DNA of 64,000 nt from Flavobacteriales bacterium (GTDB taxonomy: Bacteria > Bacteroidota > Bacteroidia > Palsa-965), in the NCBI GenBank assembly GCA_040377305.1, contig JBEIPA010000018.1:32001-96000 (forward strand). Direction: 5' to 3'. Positions within the stretch are counted from its first letter, which is position 1. Every line of letters starts with the position of its first letter. The notes below the pieces were generated by a model. It saw only the letters and a program-made list of their open reading frames with translations. It was not told where the DNA came from and did not search any database. Below are positions 3,713-50,122 of the stretch, piece by piece. The translations under genes were made by a program, and so were the position numbers.

Positions 3713-3902
3713 ACGTCTGAGGTCTAATAATAATGCCGGACATTATATCCGCATATATCTCAAATATAGCCCATTTAAGCATCCTTCTACCTTCTGAAAC
3801 CTTATATAAATTGACCTTTTCCCTCCCATAAATTGCTTCCTCAACAGTCCGGGAATATATTTGATTAAGCCTTATAAACTTGCCACACTGAAAACCCGGT
3901 TC

Positions 3903-6900
3903 ATGAACGCAAATCGTTTACTATTGAAACGTATTCTACTTTCTGCAGCAACTGCACTACTGATGTGCACGTCGCTTGTTGCACAAAGCAGCACCAACTG
4001 GACAATCAACTTCCAGGATGCAGGTTCCTTCGTTGAGAACAAAGGACAGTTTTACATTCCCGGCAGCTCAATAAAAAACGCAGATGTCCTTTACGCCATT
4101 GATGATGGAAACACACGGGTGTTCTTTACCAAACGTGGTGTGTCCATTCTTATGACGGACATGAATAAGCGCAAGAAAACAGAAGAAGAAAAAGCAGAAG
4201 AGCTACGTTCAGATGTGAAATGCAAATCAAACCGTGTAACTGTGAAGAACGATTACATTCACATGAACTGGATCAACAGCAATGCAGATGTGAAAGTTGT
4301 CGTGTCGGAACAGACTGCTGATTTTCATTCTTACTCCGTGAAAGACGCAACCGGCAACTGGATAAACACCAACAACATCTTAGGCTATAAGAAACTGACC
4401 TATTTCGGAGTTTATCCCGGCATTGACATTGAATACACGATTCATCCTGAAAAAGGTTTTAAGTACACACTAATTGTCCACCCCGGTGCCGACGTTTCAA
4501 AATTCAGCGTTCAGTATACCGATGCAGCCGGAATGTCAATTGATCCTTCCGGAAACCTTTTAATTCCTTCACTCTTCGGAAATGTAATTGATCACGCACC
4601 GGTTACTTATTACGCAGCAAACAAAACAACAATCGGTTCTTCGTTCGTACTCGACAACAATGTTGTTTCATTCAAGCTTGACTATTACGATCATTCGAAA
4701 CAAATCATCATTGATCCATGGACAGTAACACCTGCATTTGGCAACAGCAACAAAATATGGGAGTGTGAACATGATGCTGCCGGAAACGTCTACCTCTACG
4801 GTGGTGATTCACCTATGCGACTGCGTAAATACAATTCTGCCGGAACTTTGCAATGGACATTCAATACTGCATGGGATACATCCGGTTTCTGGGTTGGCAG
4901 TTTTGTTACTGATCAGTCAGGTGCATCCTATTGCACTTCCGGTTCCAACGGAGAAATTGTAAAAGTGAGCACGGCTGGTGCACAAGTTTGGTTCAACAAT
5001 CCGAATGGTTTGTTCGGTCCTTTGTTCGAATATTGGCACCTGACTTTGAACTGCGACGAAACGCAACTTGTTGTTGGTGGCATGCGCGCCCCGAACCCAT
5101 TCTCAATTAACAACTATCGGGGAGCGGTGATGAATATCAATCTGGCCAATGGAGCTGTACTCGGTTTTGTTCCGGTAGGTTGGGTTGCAGGTATAAACAT
5201 TAAAGAAGTGAAAACCATTACGTGGTCGCCGAACGGCAATTACTATTTCCTTACGTTGGATTCCATTGGATGCGTAACTCCTGCATTAACGTTAAGCTGG
5301 AAAACAATAAGCGGATATGGTTTCTCCTATGGAACCTGTGGTTATGGCGTAACGAATCAAGGCATCAGCGCAATCCGTTGTACTGCCGCGGATATTTACA
5401 CCCAGAATGGTACATCTGTTCACCGCAGGAATATTGCCAATGGTGCAATCACCGCAACCGCATCCATTCCCGGTGGTGCAGCAAACAACACTTTCGGAAA
5501 TTCACCACTCAACAGCGGACTCGATCTCGATTTGTGTGGTAACGTTTATGCAGGATCATCCAATCAGGTTGTGAAGTACGACGCAGCATTGAATCAGCTT
5601 GCAACAGCTGCGACTACCGCTGCTGTTTATGATGTTAGCGTAAACATCGGAGGTGAAGTCATTGTTTGCGGACCTGGATATGCTTCATCAATTAACATGA
5701 CCGCGTGTGCACCAGTCGTAATTAACTGCAGCACAACAGTACCGATGAGTACAACACAAAACCAATCAAACATTACGTGCTTTGGTCAGTGTACAGGACA
5801 AGCTTCTGTTACAGCTAGCGGCGGTAACGGAGTTTACACGTATGCATGGGCACCATCGGGCGGAAACGCTTCTTCAGCCACAGGACTTTGCCAGGGAACG
5901 TACACGTGTACCGTTACAGACGGATTGGGTGCAACAATAACCGCAACGTTCAACATCACTGCGCCTTCTGCAATTACCGGTACCACTTCTTCCTCTGCAG
6001 CTACCTGTGGTAATAACAACGGAAGCGCTTCAGTGAATGCATCAGGTGGAACAGGTGTACTTACATACTCATGGGCTCCATCAGGAGGTACTGCATCAAC
6101 CGCAAGCAACATTGCCGGAGGTAACTACACTGTTACAGTAACGGATGCAAGCGGATGTACAAACACGTTTACCGTAAACGTCCCAACTTCCGGTGGACCA
6201 ACAACCAGCGTTCAATCGCAAGGTGATGTTTCCTGTTTCGGTGGGAATGATGGAACCGGAACAATTACTGCAAGTGGCAATGGACCATTCACCTACAATT
6301 GGGCACCAACTGGCGGTAGCGCTGTAACAGCAACCAATCTTACTGCGCAGGTTTACACCGTTACAGTTACAGACAACAATGGATGTACAAGCACACAAAC
6401 CGTTGCGATAACAGAACCTACTGCAGTCGCACCGTCCATCAGTGCATTCACGGATGCAACATGCGGCAACAACGATGGCACTGCAACGGCGAACGCTACT
6501 GGTGGTGTTGGTCCTTACACGTACGCATGGGCTCCGTCAGGCGGTAACGCTGCGGCTGCAATTAATCTTGGTGCCGGAATTTATACGGTTACAGTAACTG
6601 ATGCGAACAACTGTACATCGACTACAACTGTTTCCATTGCGAACGTGGGTGCTCCGGTTGTTACAACACAATCTTTAATTGATGTCAGCTGTTTTGGACT
6701 CACCGATGGAAGTGCAACAATTTCTGCAACGGGTAACGGACCTTTCACTTACACATGGACTCCAACGGGCGGTAACGCTGCAACTGCAACAAACCTCGCA
6801 CAAGGAGCATACACGGTTACTGTTACCGACAATGGTGGATGTACTGCGATTCATACAGTCACCATTTCGGAACCAACACAAATCACATCGACCATCACAC

Positions 6901-8060
6901 CACAAGATGCAACCTGTGGAAACAGCAACGGAACAGCGAGTATCACTCCGACTGGCGGAACAGGTCCGTACACGTACATGTGGAGCAACACACAAACTAC
7001 GCAGCAAATCACAGGACTTGCGGCAGGTTCTTATTCCGTAGTTGTAACAGATGCGAATGGTTGTACTTCAACTGCGTCAACCACACTACTGAATAACGGT
7101 GCGCCGAGCATCCAGGTTACCTCGCAAACAGATCCAACCTGCTTCGGCATAACAAATGGAGCCGCTGCAATTCTCGCTACAGGCGGAACGGGTCCGTTTA
7201 CTTACAACTGGTCTCCTTCCGGCGGCACAGGTTCTTCTGCAACCGGTCTTGGTGCAGGAACATATACGGTGATCGTTACAGGATCCGATGGTTGCACGCA
7301 AACACAAACGATCACGCTCACCACACCACCTGCCATTGTTTCAACAACTTCATCTACACCTGATGATTGTAATTCCAGCAATGGAAGCGCTGTGATATCC
7401 GTCTCCGGCGGTAATCCGGGATATGTACTTGCCTGGAGCACGGGTAGCAGCAATGATACGCTTACAAATCTTACCGCAGGAACTTACACGTGCACGGTTA
7501 CCGATGCAAACGGATGTACAACAGTTGCAACAGTGTTAGTTGGAACAAGCGGATCTGTTACAGCTAATGCAGGTGTTGACGTAAACATTCTGCAAGGACA
7601 AACGACGCCACTCACGGGTACCGGAGGAAATTCCTGGAGTTGGTCGCCTGCTGGTTCTCTGGATTGTGCAACGTGTCAGAATCCAAACGCTACACCAAAC
7701 GTAACAACCACATACATTCTTACTGTGACGGATTCGCTGGGATGTACGGATACAGATACAGTAACCGTGTTTGTTGAAATCCAGTGCGGTGATCTTTTCT
7801 TACCAACTGCGTTCTCACCAAACGGAGACGGAGAAAACGACATTTACTGCGTGCGTAGCAATTGCATCAAAACAGTGCAGTTTGAAATTTACAATCGATG
7901 GGGAGAGAAAGTCTTTGAGACAACCAATCCGGAAATTTGCTGGGATGGATATTGGCGAGACAAACCATGTGAAGCTGCAGTGTTCACGTATTTCATCCGC
8001 GGCGAAATGATTGACGGAAGTCCGATTGACGGTCAGGGAAATATCACACTTGTAAAATAA
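3903..8060 (+). CDS. Large T9SS type B cargo (gliding-motility-associated C-terminal domain) with N-terminal FVENKGQ domain and SprB-like repeats
   Basis: Signal-peptide-like N-terminus; many GGxxPYTYxW..YTVTVTDxNGC repeats; C-terminal PTAFSPNGDGEND..IYNRWG..WDG..GNITLVK; followed by a PorP/SprF gene. ATG at 3903 preferred over TTG at 3861. Confidence 0.9.
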   Translation: MNANRLLLKRILLSAATALLMCTSLVAQSSTNWTINFQDAGSFVENKGQFYIPGSSIKNADVLYAIDDGNTRVFFTKRGVSILMTDMNKRKKTEEEKAEELRSDVKCKSNRVTVKNDYIHMNWINSNADVKVVVSEQTADFHSYSVKDATGNWINTNNILGYKKLTYFGVYPGIDIEYTIHPEKGFKYTLIVHPGADVSKFSVQYTDAAGMSIDPSGNLLIPSLFGNVIDHAPVTYYAANKTTIGSSFVLDNNVVSFKLDYYDHSKQIIIDPWTVTPAFGNSNKIWECEHDAAGNVYLYGGDSPMRLRKYNSAGTLQWTFNTAWDTSGFWVGSFVTDQSGASYCTSGSNGEIVKVSTAGAQVWFNNPNGLFGPLFEYWHLTLNCDETQLVVGGMRAPNPFSINNYRGAVMNINLANGAVLGFVPVGWVAGINIKEVKTITWSPNGNYYFLTLDSIGCVTPALTLSWKTISGYGFSYGTCGYGVTNQGISAIRCTAADIYTQNGTSVHRRNIANGAITATASIPGGAANNTFGNSPLNSGLDLDLCGNVYAGSSNQVVKYDAALNQLATAATTAAVYDVSVNIGGEVIVCGPGYASSINMTACAPVVINCSTTVPMSTTQNQSNITCFGQCTGQASVTASGGNGVYTYAWAPSGGNASSATGLCQGTYTCTVTDGLGATITATFNITAPSAITGTTSSSAATCGNNNGSASVNASGGTGVLTYSWAPSGGTASTASNIAGGNYTVTVTDASGCTNTFTVNVPTSGGPTTSVQSQGDVSCFGGNDGTGTITASGNGPFTYNWAPTGGSAVTATNLTAQVYTVTVTDNNGCTSTQTVAITEPTAVAPSISAFTDATCGNNDGTATANATGGVGPYTYAWAPSGGNAAAAINLGAGIYTVTVTDANNCTSTTTVSIANVGAPVVTTQSLIDVSCFGLTDGSATISATGNGPFTYTWTPTGGNAATATNLAQGAYTVTVTDNGGCTAIHTVTISEPTQITSTITPQDATCGNSNGTASITPTGGTGPYTYMWSNTQTTQQITGLAAGSYSVVVTDANGCTSTASTTLLNNGAPSIQVTSQTDPTCFGITNGAAAILATGGTGPFTYNWSPSGGTGSSATGLGAGTYTVIVTGSDGCTQTQTITLTTPPAIVSTTSSTPDDCNSSNGSAVISVSGGNPGYVLAWSTGSSNDTLTNLTAGTYTCTVTDANGCTTVATVLVGTSGSVTANAGVDVNILQGQTTPLTGTGGNSWSWSPAGSLDCATCQNPNATPNVTTTYILTVTDSLGCTDTDTVTVFVEIQCGDLFLPTAFSPNGDGENDIYCVRSNCIKTVQFEIYNRWGEKVFETTNPEICWDGYWRDKPCEAAVFTYFIRGEMIDGSPIDGQGNITLVK

Positions 8061-16704: not shown

Positions 16705-16896
16705 ATGAAAAAAGGTACAGTTAAATTCTTCAACACAACTAAAGGTTTTGGATTCATTAAGGATGACGAAACTAACACAGAAATCTTCGTACACGTTACA
16801 GGATTGAAAGATGAAATTCGTGAGAACGACATCGTTGTGTTCGAAATTCAGGACGGACGTAAAGGGCCGAACGCTGTTAACGTGAAACTCGCGTAA
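16705..16896 (+). CDS. Cold-shock protein
   Basis: GTVKFFNTTKGFGFI, IFVHVT. Confidence 0.95.
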   Translation: MKKGTVKFFNTTKGFGFIKDDETNTEIFVHVTGLKDEIRENDIVVFEIQDGRKGPNAVNVKLA

Positions 16897-16923
16897 TCAG
16901 ACTCGGAGATGATATATCTCTCA

Positions 16924-16951
16924 AGGCGGACTTCGGTCCGCCTTTTTTTTT
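16924..16951 (+). terminator. Intrinsic terminator
   Basis: AGGCGGAC-TTCG-GTCCGCCT followed by a T run. Confidence 0.9.
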
Positions 16952-16971
16952 GCCGTAGATGAAGCGGTGAA

Positions 16972-17174
16972 AAATGGAACACGGATTTTGATGCCCTTTG
17001 TTTTCTAACGTCAAGAAAGGATGAGTTCGGTAAATTCAGAGTTCGGTTGGCGGATCCCATGAGATAAACTCAAGCCTATCTCATTAAATCCAATAGCGAA
17101 AACGAAAAGTTCAACCGTAGTCATCCGAGCAAGCCCACTAAACACTAGCGGACTTCAAAATCCGCGTTCCATTT
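16972..17174. repeat. ~200-bp inverted-repeat/rod-like element, copy A
   Basis: Terminal inverted repeat AAATGGAACACGGATTTTGA / TCAAAATCCGCGTTCCATTT; homologous to 44697-44896. Confidence 0.8.
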
Positions 17175-23684: not shown

Positions 23685-24365
23685 ATGGCACAAGAAACGA
23701 AAGAACAGCCTACACTCGACATCGAGGCTGCGTACGACAAGACGGAAATGTATATCAACGAGAACAAGAAAAGTCTCGCTTTGATTATTGGTGGCGTCAT
23801 TGCATTGGTTGGTGTATTCTTCCTCTGGAAGTTTTGGTACCAGGAACCACGCAACATTGAAGCTGCTGAAGCAATGTACAAGGCTGAGATCTGGTTCCAG
23901 CGCGACTCATTCAATCTTTGCATCAATGGCAAAGGCGACACGCTCGGAATGCAGTCAATCGTTGACGAGTACGGCAGCACGCCTTCAGGCAACCTTGCAA
24001 AGTATTATCTCGGGGTTAGCTACCTGCGCACTGGTCAGTGGGATCTTTCAATCGAGACGCTCGAAGATTTTGACTCGGACGATATGTTCCTGAGCGCAAT
24101 GTCAATCGGAATGATTGGCGATGCGTATATGGAAAAAGGAATGGTTGATGATGCAATTGATCATTACCTGAAAGCAGCAAACAAAAATCCAAACAAATTC
24201 ACTTCACCTACATTCCTGAAGAAAGCAGCATTTGCTGAAGAAGACCGCGGAAACAAAGAAGATGCGTTGAAATTGTACGAGCAGATCAAAGTTGATTATC
24301 CTGAATCACAGGATGCAGCACAGATCGACAAGTATATCACTCGCGCCGGCGGTGTAGTAAAGTAG
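23685..24365 (+). CDS. Membrane-anchored TPR protein (YfgM-like)
   Basis: One N-terminal TM segment followed by TPR helices; upstream of ribH. Confidence 0.8.
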   Translation: MAQETKEQPTLDIEAAYDKTEMYINENKKSLALIIGGVIALVGVFFLWKFWYQEPRNIEAAEAMYKAEIWFQRDSFNLCINGKGDTLGMQSIVDEYGSTPSGNLAKYYLGVSYLRTGQWDLSIETLEDFDSDDMFLSAMSIGMIGDAYMEKGMVDDAIDHYLKAANKNPNKFTSPTFLKKAAFAEEDRGNKEDALKLYEQIKVDYPESQDAAQIDKYITRAGGVVK

Positions 24366-24536
24366 GAAACGCTTTAAGTCATTAAGTAGGCAAGTCGGGC
24401 TGCATCATGTAGACCGACTTGCTTATTTATAGCTTGGCCAGACTTGCTTACTTTTATACTTGCCTGCTTTTTACTGGCCTACTTAATACTTGCCTACTTA
24501 AATCCTTATTGACTTACTGACTTTTTAGACTTCACC

Positions 24537-38338: not shown

Positions 38339-38451
38339 TCGCGCGTTTGCACAAACTTTTCCAAAGTTTGCCGACGATGTTGAATCGACCGTATAGATAC
38401 AGCGGTCATTTTTAAACTGTCGTCCAACTTTGGAAAAGTTGTGCAGCGCGA
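38339..38451. repeat. Long imperfect hairpin in the divergent comEC intergenic region
   Basis: TCGCGC..TGCACAAACTTTTCCAAAGTT ... AACTTTGGAAAAGTTGTGCAGCGCGA. Confidence 0.8.
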
Positions 38452-43276: not shown

Positions 43277-44356
43277 ATGAATAAATTTGCAAAATATTAT
43301 CTCCCTGGATTCCTGATTACCGGACTCTTCTTCGGAATGTGTACTTCTGCTGAAGACAAAGAATCCAAAACAGGAAAAGCAGGTGATCAGTTCGATCTGT
43401 TTGCCGTTATGGCCCTCTTTGAAAAATCTTCATCGCCTGAGGATTTTGAAACAGCTATCAATACAAAGTCGAATGGTGTAAATAATCTTGATCTGAATGA
43501 AGATGGACAGACGGATTACATCAAAGTAACTGATAAGAAGATTGATGAGAGTTCACACTGTTTCATTCTGCAGATAGATATTGCTGATGGTAGTACGCAA
43601 GATGTAGCCACTATTGAAATGCAGAAGGTTGCCGATGGTGAAGCGAATGTGCAGCTCATTGGTGATCCTGAATTGTATGGATCTGATTACATCGTTGAGC
43701 CAGCTTCGGAGGTAGCAGCCGCAGGTTTTGTAGTTGCAACTACGACAGCCGTGAATGTTTGGTCATGGCCTTATGTGACTCACGTTTACTCACCAGCGTA
43801 TGTCGTTTATGAATCGCCATACCGCTACGAATACTATCCCGTTTGGTATCAGCCTTGGCCTGTAGTTGCGTATGACGTTTACTATCCTACTATTTCTGTG
43901 CATCGGGTGAAGTACGAATACTCAGATGGATATCGCTTTGTTCACGTACATGAAAACTATCATAGCAATTACCGCGTTACCACGAAGTTTAAATACAAAG
44001 AGAAGGACTATGGCAATGGAAAATCCAATGGCAATGTTGTGGTATTCAAAAACAAGAATGATGGTAGTGGCAACAACGGGAATGGCAAAGACAATTCTTC
44101 TGGTAGTAACAACTCCGATGGAAAAGGAAACGGAAATGGCAAAGGAAACGAGAACGGAAATGATAAAGGAAATGGAAATGATAAAGGAAATGGCAATGAG
44201 AATAAATCCGACGACGATTCGAAAGGGAACGATGGAAAATCCAATCAGAAAAACGATGCGAATGCAGGTGAAGGAAATTCCGGTTCGAAGGGCAAAGGAG
44301 ATAATTCACAACCCAAAGATGGTGGTGGAAAGAATGGTGGAGGAAAACCCAAGTAG
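43277..44356 (+). CDS. Paralog of 42212-43060 with a G/N/K/D low-complexity tail; possible lipoprotein
   Basis: GDQFDL..LFEK..NNLDLNEDGQTDYIKV shared with the upstream gene; FGMC. Confidence 0.8.
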   Translation: MNKFAKYYLPGFLITGLFFGMCTSAEDKESKTGKAGDQFDLFAVMALFEKSSSPEDFETAINTKSNGVNNLDLNEDGQTDYIKVTDKKIDESSHCFILQIDIADGSTQDVATIEMQKVADGEANVQLIGDPELYGSDYIVEPASEVAAAGFVVATTTAVNVWSWPYVTHVYSPAYVVYESPYRYEYYPVWYQPWPVVAYDVYYPTISVHRVKYEYSDGYRFVHVHENYHSNYRVTTKFKYKEKDYGNGKSNGNVVVFKNKNDGSGNNGNGKDNSSGSNNSDGKGNGNGKGNENGNDKGNGNDKGNGNENKSDDDSKGNDGKSNQKNDANAGEGNSGSKGKGDNSQPKDGGGKNGGGKPK

Positions 44357-44650
44357 TACGATCCATGACACAGGAATAGATTACGGTGAAGACATTTTTA
44401 CCTCTCAAAAGCGTAGAATTCCTTCCCCACGCTGTTAATAACTCCAATGAATTGCGTCAACTATCTCTGATTTGTGTCGAAGGATCGAATAAATTTTCAG
44501 GGTGCGTTTATTTGATAGAAATTCGATTCAACAAACTCAGAAAACAACACCAAAGTATTCCTCAGCTGGCAGTCATATCCCACACCAAACACTCGGAAAT
44601 CAGCGGCCGGGTAAGAAATCAGGGAAGATTAACATGACGCTAAACCAGCG

Positions 44651-44679
44651 AAAAGCCACCATTCTCGGTGGCTTTTTTT
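44651..44679. terminator. Intrinsic terminator, possibly bidirectional
   Basis: AAAAGCCACC-ATTCTC-GGTGGCTTTTTTT. Confidence 0.85.
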
Positions 44680-44696
44680 ATTTACCGCCGCGCAGA

Positions 44697-44896
44697 AAAT
44701 GGAACGCGGATTTTGATGTCCGTTGTTTTCTTTTCTCTCGCTTGGATCACCGCGGTAAATACGAAGAGTCTGAATTCGATTATATGAGATAAACTTAAGC
44801 GCATCTCAGAAAATCCAAATTCACGCTGTTGATGATTTGTAGAATGATCCGAAGGAAACGCTCACAAGCCTCGTGCATAAAAATCCGCGTCCCTAT
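44697..44896. repeat. ~200-bp inverted-repeat/rod-like element, copy B
   Basis: AAATGGAACGCGGATTTTGATG ... AAAATCCGCGTCCC; shares ATGAGATAAACTYAAGC..ATCTCA core with 16972-17174. Confidence 0.8.
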
Positions 44897-45501
44897 TCTT
44901 CATTCTTCCGCTTATATCCTACGCGTTTCCGATCTCCATCCTTCACTGGTGGCGCCATTAGTCTTCTGATCGCGTCAAACACCACTGCGAACTTCTTATC
45001 GTAGTTGTCTTCCAGTTCATCCAAACGTTTCGAGAGTGTCTTGTTGTTCGCAATAAGCTCTCGCAGGCGCACAAACGCTTTAACGACCTGTATACTGGCA
45101 TGTACAGCCTTCGGTGAGTTAAGTACGCTGGCGAGCATTACAGTGCCATGCTCGGTGAATACATAGGGCATGTAACGACGACCGCCTCGGCCACTTGAGG
45201 TCGCATTTTGCGACTTCAGGTTTTTGTTCTCCTTATTTGAGGTCACAGACTGTGACCTCAAGTCAGCTCCTGAACTTGAGGTCGCAAATTGCGACCTCAA
45301 AGCTTCATGCTCTTTTTCAGTTAACTGAAACATGAAATCCTTTGGAAATCGTGCAAGGTTTCTCTTTACCTGCTCATTCAAACGTTTTGTGTCAACACCG
45401 TACATTCTTGCGAGATCCTCATCCAGCATGACCTGGTGACCGCGGATGGTGTAGATCAAAGAATCGTCTGTCTTGTTAATTAAGTCTTTCGGAGCGTTCA
45501 T
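44893..45501 (-). CDS. ORF6N (KilA-N-like) DNA-binding domain protein with a triplicated LRSQxxTS motif
   Basis: IYTIRGHQVMLDEDLARMYGV..LNEQVKRN..RFPKDFMFQLT..GGRRYMPYVFTEHG..MLASVLNS. Confidence 0.93.
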   Translation of the reverse strand: MNAPKDLINKTDDSLIYTIRGHQVMLDEDLARMYGVDTKRLNEQVKRNLARFPKDFMFQLTEKEHEALRSQFATSSSGADLRSQSVTSNKENKNLKSQNATSSGRGGRRYMPYVFTEHGTVMLASVLNSPKAVHASIQVVKAFVRLRELIANNKTLSKRLDELEDNYDKKFAVVFDAIRRLMAPPVKDGDRKRVGYKRKNEE

Positions 45502-45595
45502 ATCGTTGGGTTTTCTCAAAGATAATTCACCCAATATTATTCTGCATGAAAGACTAAGATTCTTAGCCGTAAATCAATGTATTGGCAAAAGATGT

Positions 45596-47383: not shown

Positions 47384-47438
47384 TGGAAGTAATAAGTATT
47401 TAAGTAGGTAAGTACTAAGTATTGTCAGGTGTGATTTT

Positions 47439-49927: not shown

Positions 49928-50122
49928 AAATATGTTGATCTACTAATGAGGTAATGTGCTAATAGACAGTCGATCAAAAACTACTGGTTTATGGGGCGCG
50001 ACTAACTGTTGTTCACCCCAATTTGATTAGCACATTAGCAAATTAACCCATTAGCAAATTGATTTTATCTTTATCTTGTCGCGATTAATCGCAAATAGAC
50101 CACCCTTTATCGTAAGCCCCTC

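Follow-up and report, generated by a model that had tools for sequence, protein, structure and literature searches.

A palindromic repeat family at gene ends shares its arms with a GxxExxY gene cassette and is probably gene-less selfish DNA rather than a structured RNA gene

Bacterial MITEs are non-autonomous elements with terminal inverted repeats that arise by internal deletion of a gene-bearing parent. Another class of mobile palindrome is formed by the REPIN-RAYT system, which in the available text of its descriptions consists of extragenic inverted hairpin doublets, where the doublet is the unit and tandem clusters also occur (PMC3116915; PMC5581495). The RAYT enzyme is encoded there by a single-copy, vertically kept gene that is flanked by the same repeats, and a genome can hold several such enzyme-repeat pairs (PMC3116915; PMC5581495). 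TIRtrons, in the accessible part of their description, carry an enzyme gene within long inverted repeats that are unrelated to the GTAG REPs, and the corresponding TIR families are gene-less, moderately abundant, located downstream of genes and able to supply a stop codon (Di Nocera, 2013, PMC3733652). A further account, in the portion available, deals with HUH enzymes only (PMC6006769). The family PDDEXK_3 (PF13366), to which the enzyme considered below belongs, is tabulated with the function 'Unknown' in the available text of PMC3424549. In the literature that we searched, with subscription papers and supplements outside its range, no link between GxxExxY proteins and repeats was found.

The window analysed here is a stretch of 64,000 nucleotides of the source genome, termed G000 (G000:C24:32001-96000), and carries two copies of a palindromic element, copy A and copy B (Table 1). 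Judging by gene content and by the names of homologs, the host probably belongs to the Bacteroidota. The original prediction placed both copies correctly and in the same orientation, and the conserved blocks that it listed are present. Each copy folds as a long interrupted hairpin, as had been proposed (z = -5.8 and -2.8), and an intrinsic terminator does end about 17-20 nt upstream of each. The left arm of copy A reads AAAWD-GGAACRCGGATTTT, followed by GGAT at +44 and GATYYYATGAGAT at +76, and the right end of copy B overlaps the stop codon of an ORF6N gene (44893-44895, minus strand). Comparison with Rfam, including 6S, had been suggested as a check; neither copy belongs to any family in the scan, and neither matches a model, 6S included, at E up to 10. 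Across the whole window the scan returned three tRNAs and terminator-level chance matches, and nothing else.

Table 1. Parts of the two window copies and the terminators beside them (positions in the window)
Feature	Position	Strand	Basis
Copy A, whole gene-less element (two inverted arms and loop)	16972..17174	.	Profile match, fold, orthologous-site comparison
Copy A left arm, outer linker version 'a'	16972..17065	+	Arm alignment, linker typing
Copy A loop AAACTCAAGCCT	17066..17077	+	Cassette downstream-arm inner flank joined to upstream-arm inner flank
Copy A right arm (inverted), outer linker version 'b'	17078..17174	-	Arm alignment, linker typing
Intrinsic terminator of cold-shock gene (16705-16896)	16923..16952	+	Host feature; empty site has it too
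Copy B, whole gene-less element	44697..44897	.	Profile match, fold, orthologous-site comparison
Copy B left arm, outer linker version 'a'	44697..44790	+	Arm alignment, linker typing
Copy B loop AAACTTAAGCGC	44791..44802	+	Sequence
Copy B right arm (inverted), outer linker version 'b'	44803..44897	-	Arm alignment, linker typing
Intrinsic terminator upstream of copy B	44651..44679	+	Host feature; at G013 empty site too

Only two copies had been claimed. A half-element profile search, with a profile built from the arms themselves, found 148 arm matches at 68 loci in G000 and none in a locally shuffled version of the genome; the loci occur in both strand orientations. Simple facing doublets account for 47 of the 68, and most others are tandem arm arrays or decayed doublets. 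Each element consists of two inverted arms of about 100 nt with three GGAT motifs at fixed spacing. The arm consensus is AAA-W-D-GGAACGCGGATTTT, with GGAT at +44 and GATYTWATGAGAT at +76, and a GTAG/CGTC foot is not conserved in it. Arms are 89-92 nt long in 210 of the 223 examined from G000 and a sister genome, G015, their linkers being variable in sequence and fixed in length. Median arm identity is 64%, with one of 4950 pairs above 90%, so the copies look old and there has been no recent burst. Identity between the two genomes (0.638) is the same as that within them (0.645 and 0.654).

The distribution of the family is narrow. Of the 41 genomes searched, only G000 (99 occurrences) and G015 (77) contain the arm pattern, and G015 by itself has dozens of loci. 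The apical or central hairpin was found in 2 of 35 genomes of the family, so that 33 of the 34 others lack it. Plasmids, phages and viral contigs gave no match to the element, and none of 300 genomes of the class has it, in a weak test that scored two candidates per genome. The exact arm pattern was found in 44 stretches of a species-genome collection; 40 of these lie in one record, which is not counted as a third genome, and the remaining four are single matches that fail the arm profile. Head-to-tail arrays of three to five arms, with a period of 108-118 nt, are present in G000 at C12:34696-35271, C35:18014-18500, C45:252160-252588 and C60:124784-125222; they are superficially CRISPR-like but are composed of duplicated arms.

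Inverted arms of the same kind enclose a GxxExxY gene at G000:C60:144396-145293, immediately beyond the stop codon that ends a radical SAM gene. The gene matches TIGR04256 at 131 bits, against a cut-off of 35, and PF13366, and the 421 nt between its arms form the only gap above 110 nt between facing arms in G000. At the next-longest enclosure (103 nt, C11:90407-90707), the arms have between them the C-terminal part, about 25 codons long, of a GxxExxY gene of another allele. In both G000 and G015 the inner flanks of the cassette read AGGCT.. on the upstream side of the gene and AAACT.. on its downstream side, and the fused flanks are the common element loops, for example AAACTCAAGCCT of copy A. 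The doublets have the polarity of the cassette: in 38 of 50 elements in G000 and 23 of 31 in G015, one inner end is of the AAAC type and the other of the AGG/ACG type. The elements probably derive from this cassette. Because the repeat arms also enclose the GxxExxY gene, the copies are likely to be gene-less derivatives that were spread by its product into gene ends, and thus selfish DNA, not a structured RNA gene.

A search for a co-occurring nuclease gene, as the original prediction had advised, thus yields an arm-flanked GxxExxY cassette in G000 and in G015. GxxExxY genes are present in 33 of the 41 genomes, and an arm-flanked ortholog at the orthologous site, 79% identical, is present in G015 alone; the next-best identity is 60%. 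The cassette occupies one locus common to these two genomes, not many, and at its site G007 has another palindrome and G010 another sequence, both without the gene. At least 7942 relatives of the protein exist, the 13 closest being 68-94% identical to it, and a metagenome scan found no member of this close clade (best 61%). Purifying selection acts on the gene (pN 0.14, with pS saturated). Residues E27, D66, E76 and K78, which we take to be the PD-(D/E)XK site, are invariant in 120 homologs. A sequence search for a solved structure of the protein found none. Its predicted structure (pLDDT 94) resembles restriction-endonuclease-like folds with modest scores, with SSO0001 at TM 0.56, a best Z of 8.2 and Hjc at Z 6.1 among many PD-(D/E)XK folds; such middling matches of a predicted model do not indicate a function.

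The long arm is a lineage-specific form of a general layout in which GxxExxY genes have inverted flanks. In G000, each of eight full-length GxxExxY genes has its own inverted repeat of 16-38 nt, dispersed at 5-42 loci. Inverted flanks occur at 15 of 20 genome GxxExxY loci, versus 5 of 20 in a direct-repeat control, and at 33 of the 63 usable metagenome loci (of 80 returned), versus 2 of 63 in a swapped control and 17 of 63 for direct repeats; no clear inverted repeat is seen at the other 30. The flanking repeats of the closer loci begin with the same GGAAC-C-GAT-like foot. The compact palindromes that flank GxxExxY genes have gene family and layout in common with the element, and the 20-40-nt inverted repeats of closer homologs its foot as well. 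They differ from the present form, in which a GGAT-type periodic arm of about 9 nt is stretched to about 100 nt by linkers that vary in sequence but not in length, and in which, unlike in the compact palindromes, the two arms of an element differ in linker version. In G000, C7:71029-71076, C6:1397-1459 and C32:3956-4043, together with locus L223, hold compact relatives that have this foot and a GGAT period of 9 nt; they sit where G015 has the long element and are a likely ancestral form.

By analogy, the element would work like REPIN-RAYT and TIRtrons, but it is not a member of either system, its enzyme being non-HUH/Y1 and a GTAG foot being absent. As far as the available descriptions go, it resembles REPIN-RAYT in its inverted extragenic hairpin doublets, which form the unit, its many copies and tandem clusters, the vertically kept single-copy enzyme gene flanked by the repeat, and the presence of several enzyme-repeat pairs in one genome. 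It differs in having a PD-(D/E)XK enzyme (PF13366) instead of an HUH/Y1 transposase, arms of about 100 nt with three spaced motifs and no GTAG foot instead of REPs of 20-40 nt, and copies that are only about 64% alike. With TIRtrons, as portrayed in the same partial sources, it has in common an enzyme gene within long inverted repeats unrelated to GTAG REPs and moderately abundant gene-less copies that lie downstream of genes and can supply a stop codon, whereas TIRYTs keep an HUH domain with a catalytic tyrosine and the GxxExxY gene has no such family match. Like MITEs, in the accessible text of PMC3733652, the element is non-autonomous, about 200 bp long, adjoins coding sequences and has terminal inverted repeats in common with a gene-bearing parent; unlike them it has no target-site duplication and no DDE transposase parent, is wholly palindromic and is strictly placed at stop codons. 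Its size and rod-with-bubbles outline recall 6S RNA (RF00013, RF01685), from which it is set apart by the lack of a model match, some 68 copies, the lack of covariation and a patchy presence. It is a real, long-armed and dispersed member of a nuclease-palindrome system that is apparently unpublished.

We assign a probability of roughly 0.65 to the reading that the element descends from the cassette through loss of the gene and that the nuclease, acting in trans, copies it to further gene ends. Loss of the gene from a GxxExxY cassette would leave a gene-less doublet. The GxxExxY protein might then bind the GGAT-core motifs (terminal, +44 and +76) on an extruded hairpin or cruciform, which the putative nuclease would nick, and host repair would copy the whole doublet into a gene-end site, often one that already has a hairpin, so that the doublet would be the replicating unit. 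Recombination between inverted motifs probably flips the inner part of the element, which would explain why every copy has both outer-linker versions and both kinds of inner flank, each once, and why the phase between the two is random. The original prediction of a MITE/REPIN-like mobile hairpin agrees with the dispersed copies, the empty or differently filled orthologous sites and the cognate nuclease cassette. Mobilisation by the nuclease is likely. Against it stands the restriction of the long arm to two genomes, because of which the co-occurrence of repeat and gene amounts to one evolutionary event, as do the old look of the copies, the single locus of the cassette, the GxxExxY loci with direct flanking repeats or with no clear inverted repeat, and the middling fold matches; in addition, 10 Y1 transposase and nine PF05635 genes in G000 could act in trans, although none of these Y1 (PF01797) or PF05635 genes lies within 2 kb of an arm.

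More broadly, we see about an even chance that GxxExxY proteins mobilise REPIN-like selfish palindromes through PD-(D/E)XK instead of HUH chemistry, that such families compete for gene-end slots and replace one another there, and that the long form of this lineage has two unlike arms and an inner part that recombination flips. Domesticated mobility in the manner of REPINs would have evolved on a second enzyme chemistry if it is the nuclease that moves the repeats. The locus offers the GxxExxY family a defined candidate substrate, in the form of a cassette, about 68 gene-less derivatives and a partly deleted intermediate.

Comparison of orthologous sites reveals gain and loss of copies. At the site of copy A, G015 has a diverged copy, G010 is empty, G007 and G013 have other palindromes, and one contig of run X4 has 131 other letters instead. 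G013 has no element at the site of copy B, where the terminator and the ORF6N stop are about 5 nt apart, and G015 has a different palindrome there. The empty sites that the original prediction proposed to look for thus exist for both copies. The test of G015 clusters covered 45, which are part of its copies and include two that had been picked beforehand. G000 has an element at 18 of these sites and none at 17, and two-sided synteny is missing for the other 10. Alleles that are filled, empty or swapped can be compared site by site. Arms at orthologous sites are hardly closer than paralogs (best match in 3 of 29) and orientation markers are not kept there (20/32 and 16/27), and the copies have therefore been rewritten or re-inserted in place. 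In a near-identical strain (run X2) the left part of copy B is unchanged, so there is no sign of hypermutation.

Such loss of site-specific similarity would also fit gene conversion, and with it a reading in which the elements come from the cassette ends while the GxxExxY gene is a passenger, the copies being spread and rewritten by a Y1/HUH transposase or by host recombination and gene conversion. The 10 Y1_Tnp genes in G000 speak for this, as do several unrelated palindrome families that use the same sites, some of which enclose PF05635 genes. However, long arms flank neither a Y1 nor a PF05635 gene, each full-length GxxExxY gene in G000 has its own dispersed repeat, as expected for enzyme-repeat pairs, and the catalytic-type residues of the protein are invariant. 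We therefore judge the passenger status of the gene to be unlikely. We know of no nuclease activity of PF05635 proteins. Y1 and PF05635 genes were rejected as parents of the element, none being arm-flanked, and a 23S rRNA intervening sequence was rejected likewise, the copies lying between protein genes and 0 of 9 PF05635 genes being arm-flanked.

The nuclease reading places the copies at gene ends, and there they are found. An element ends within 15 nt of an in-frame stop codon in 39 of 50 cases in G000 and 26 of 31 in G015, compared with 30 of 600 random positions. By crude ORF calls on 75 ends, the elements lie a median of 1 nt from the 3′ end of a gene. Insertion after terminators, which had been proposed from the window copies, does not hold for the family, since a terminator lies within 70 nt at 3 of 62 loci (background 24/300), two of the three being the window copies themselves, and copies abut stop codons instead. 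Outer-flank direct repeats average 2.36 nt in 50 elements, versus 2.32 nt in the control, and 1.39 versus 1.56 nt in a second set of 31, giving no target-site duplication, although old copies may have lost a short one. The gene context of the 62 loci, again from crude ORF calls, is tandem at 37, convergent at 19 and divergent at six; convergent sites make up about 18% of background spacers.

This placement, the convergent excess and the scarcity of terminators would all suit copies that are kept mainly as domesticated mRNA 3′-end elements, such as stabilisers, RNase III-type sites or modulators of translation or termination, with mobility being ancient. So would the 18 of 35 syntenic sites that are common to G000 and G015, genomes about 77% identical, and the frequency with which short unoccupied intervals have another repeated 14-mer (8 of 15; among gene ends taken as controls, 93 of 400). 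Fully empty sites in relatives argue against it, and so does the behaviour of the arms as pairing partners.

The swap of GGATGA/TCATCC for GGATCA/TGATCC, which the original prediction took for compensatory, is present in the sequence of the two copies but is an exception in the family: among 42 elements with C or G at that position in both arms, 31 are mismatched there (Fisher p = 0.004, against pairing). Partner-arm complementarity in 50 G000 elements is 0.598, versus 0.642 (sd 0.006) for permuted arms, and each of the 500 permutations exceeds the value of the true partners. An arm pairs less well with its own partner than with random arms in 47 of 50 elements in G000 and 27 of 31 in G015. 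Against controls with swapped arms, the native copy has the better fold in no more than 8-10 of 50 cases, whether folded as RNA or as DNA and whichever strand is used. An RNAalifold alignment of 35 copies (five from G000, 30 from G015) gave a covariation term of +0.11 with a single double change in only 2 of 23 pairs, and retained only the invariant terminal and apical pairs; within arms, the top mutual-information pairs are not base-pairing. Much of the pairing deficit arises from the outer linker, which exists in two versions: 67 of 81 elements have one version on each arm (p about 1e-9), and which version an arm has does not depend on its loop side. A small residual deficit is left beyond this. 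Left and right arm subtypes tied to loop polarity were rejected as a cause, polarity-matched swapped arms still pairing better.

With more copies aligned, then, the covariation on which a structured RNA under pairing selection had been staked beforehand is absent. The same absence, between and within arms, and the poor showing of native folds against swapped ones weigh against mRNA 3′-end function as the reason for the copies; a role in mRNA can be a side effect, not the cause, and we hold the 3′-end reading to be quite improbable. A stand-alone structured ncRNA, such as a 6S-like RNA in many copies, would account for a rod of about 200 nt with internal bubbles and for the lack of a 6S or 6S-Flavo match elsewhere in G000 (the latter from a search run with no positive control), yet it is highly improbable in view of the Rfam result, the 68 loci in both orientations and tandem arrays, the other family genomes that lack the element, the anti-covariation and the arms in common with a nuclease cassette. 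For ncRNA discovery this is a caution, as a two-copy comparison of a palindromic repeat mimics a 6S-like fold with compensatory swaps.

Gene-less selfish DNA spread by the GxxExxY enzyme remains our preferred reading of the copies, and other palindromes are found in and around them. Palindromes of other kinds are nested in the loop or in one arm at L037:2521-2749, L055, L063, L077, L083 and L088, and in G000 at C38:60-319 and C50:39902-40131, which suggests that hairpins are insertion targets. The window contains further intergenic palindrome families at 38354-38440, 24359-24524, 47391-47421 and 49929-50060, the last of which matches an inverted repeat around a PF05635 gene at C46:102424. Repeated 14-mers occur at about a quarter of the sampled gene ends of G000. 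Six of the nine PF05635 four-helix-bundle genes in that genome (C11:25464, C46:102424, C38:16261, C7:50842, C52:210543 and C51:46652) and three of the 10 Y1 transposase genes are flanked by inverted repeats of their own, and there are therefore parallel gene-palindrome systems in G000.

Other features of the window were also noted. The ORF6N gene (44893-45534, minus strand) contains three short palindromic repeats at 45193-45300, the number of units differing in G013. A gene for a 1399-aa protein at 3861-8060 (+) has internal repeats of about 228 nt, and the 371-aa ORF that precedes copy B has a low-complexity G/N/K repeat at 44010-44196. Between that repeat and copy B lies a single-copy conserved non-coding rod (44530-44685, +) that ends in the terminator just before the copy. 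It is 88% identical over 290 nt in G015, above its flanking genes, and 84% identical over 147 nt in G013. With z = -2.9, one double change among three sequences and no Rfam family, it is a candidate small RNA and perhaps the lineage's missing 6S-like RNA.
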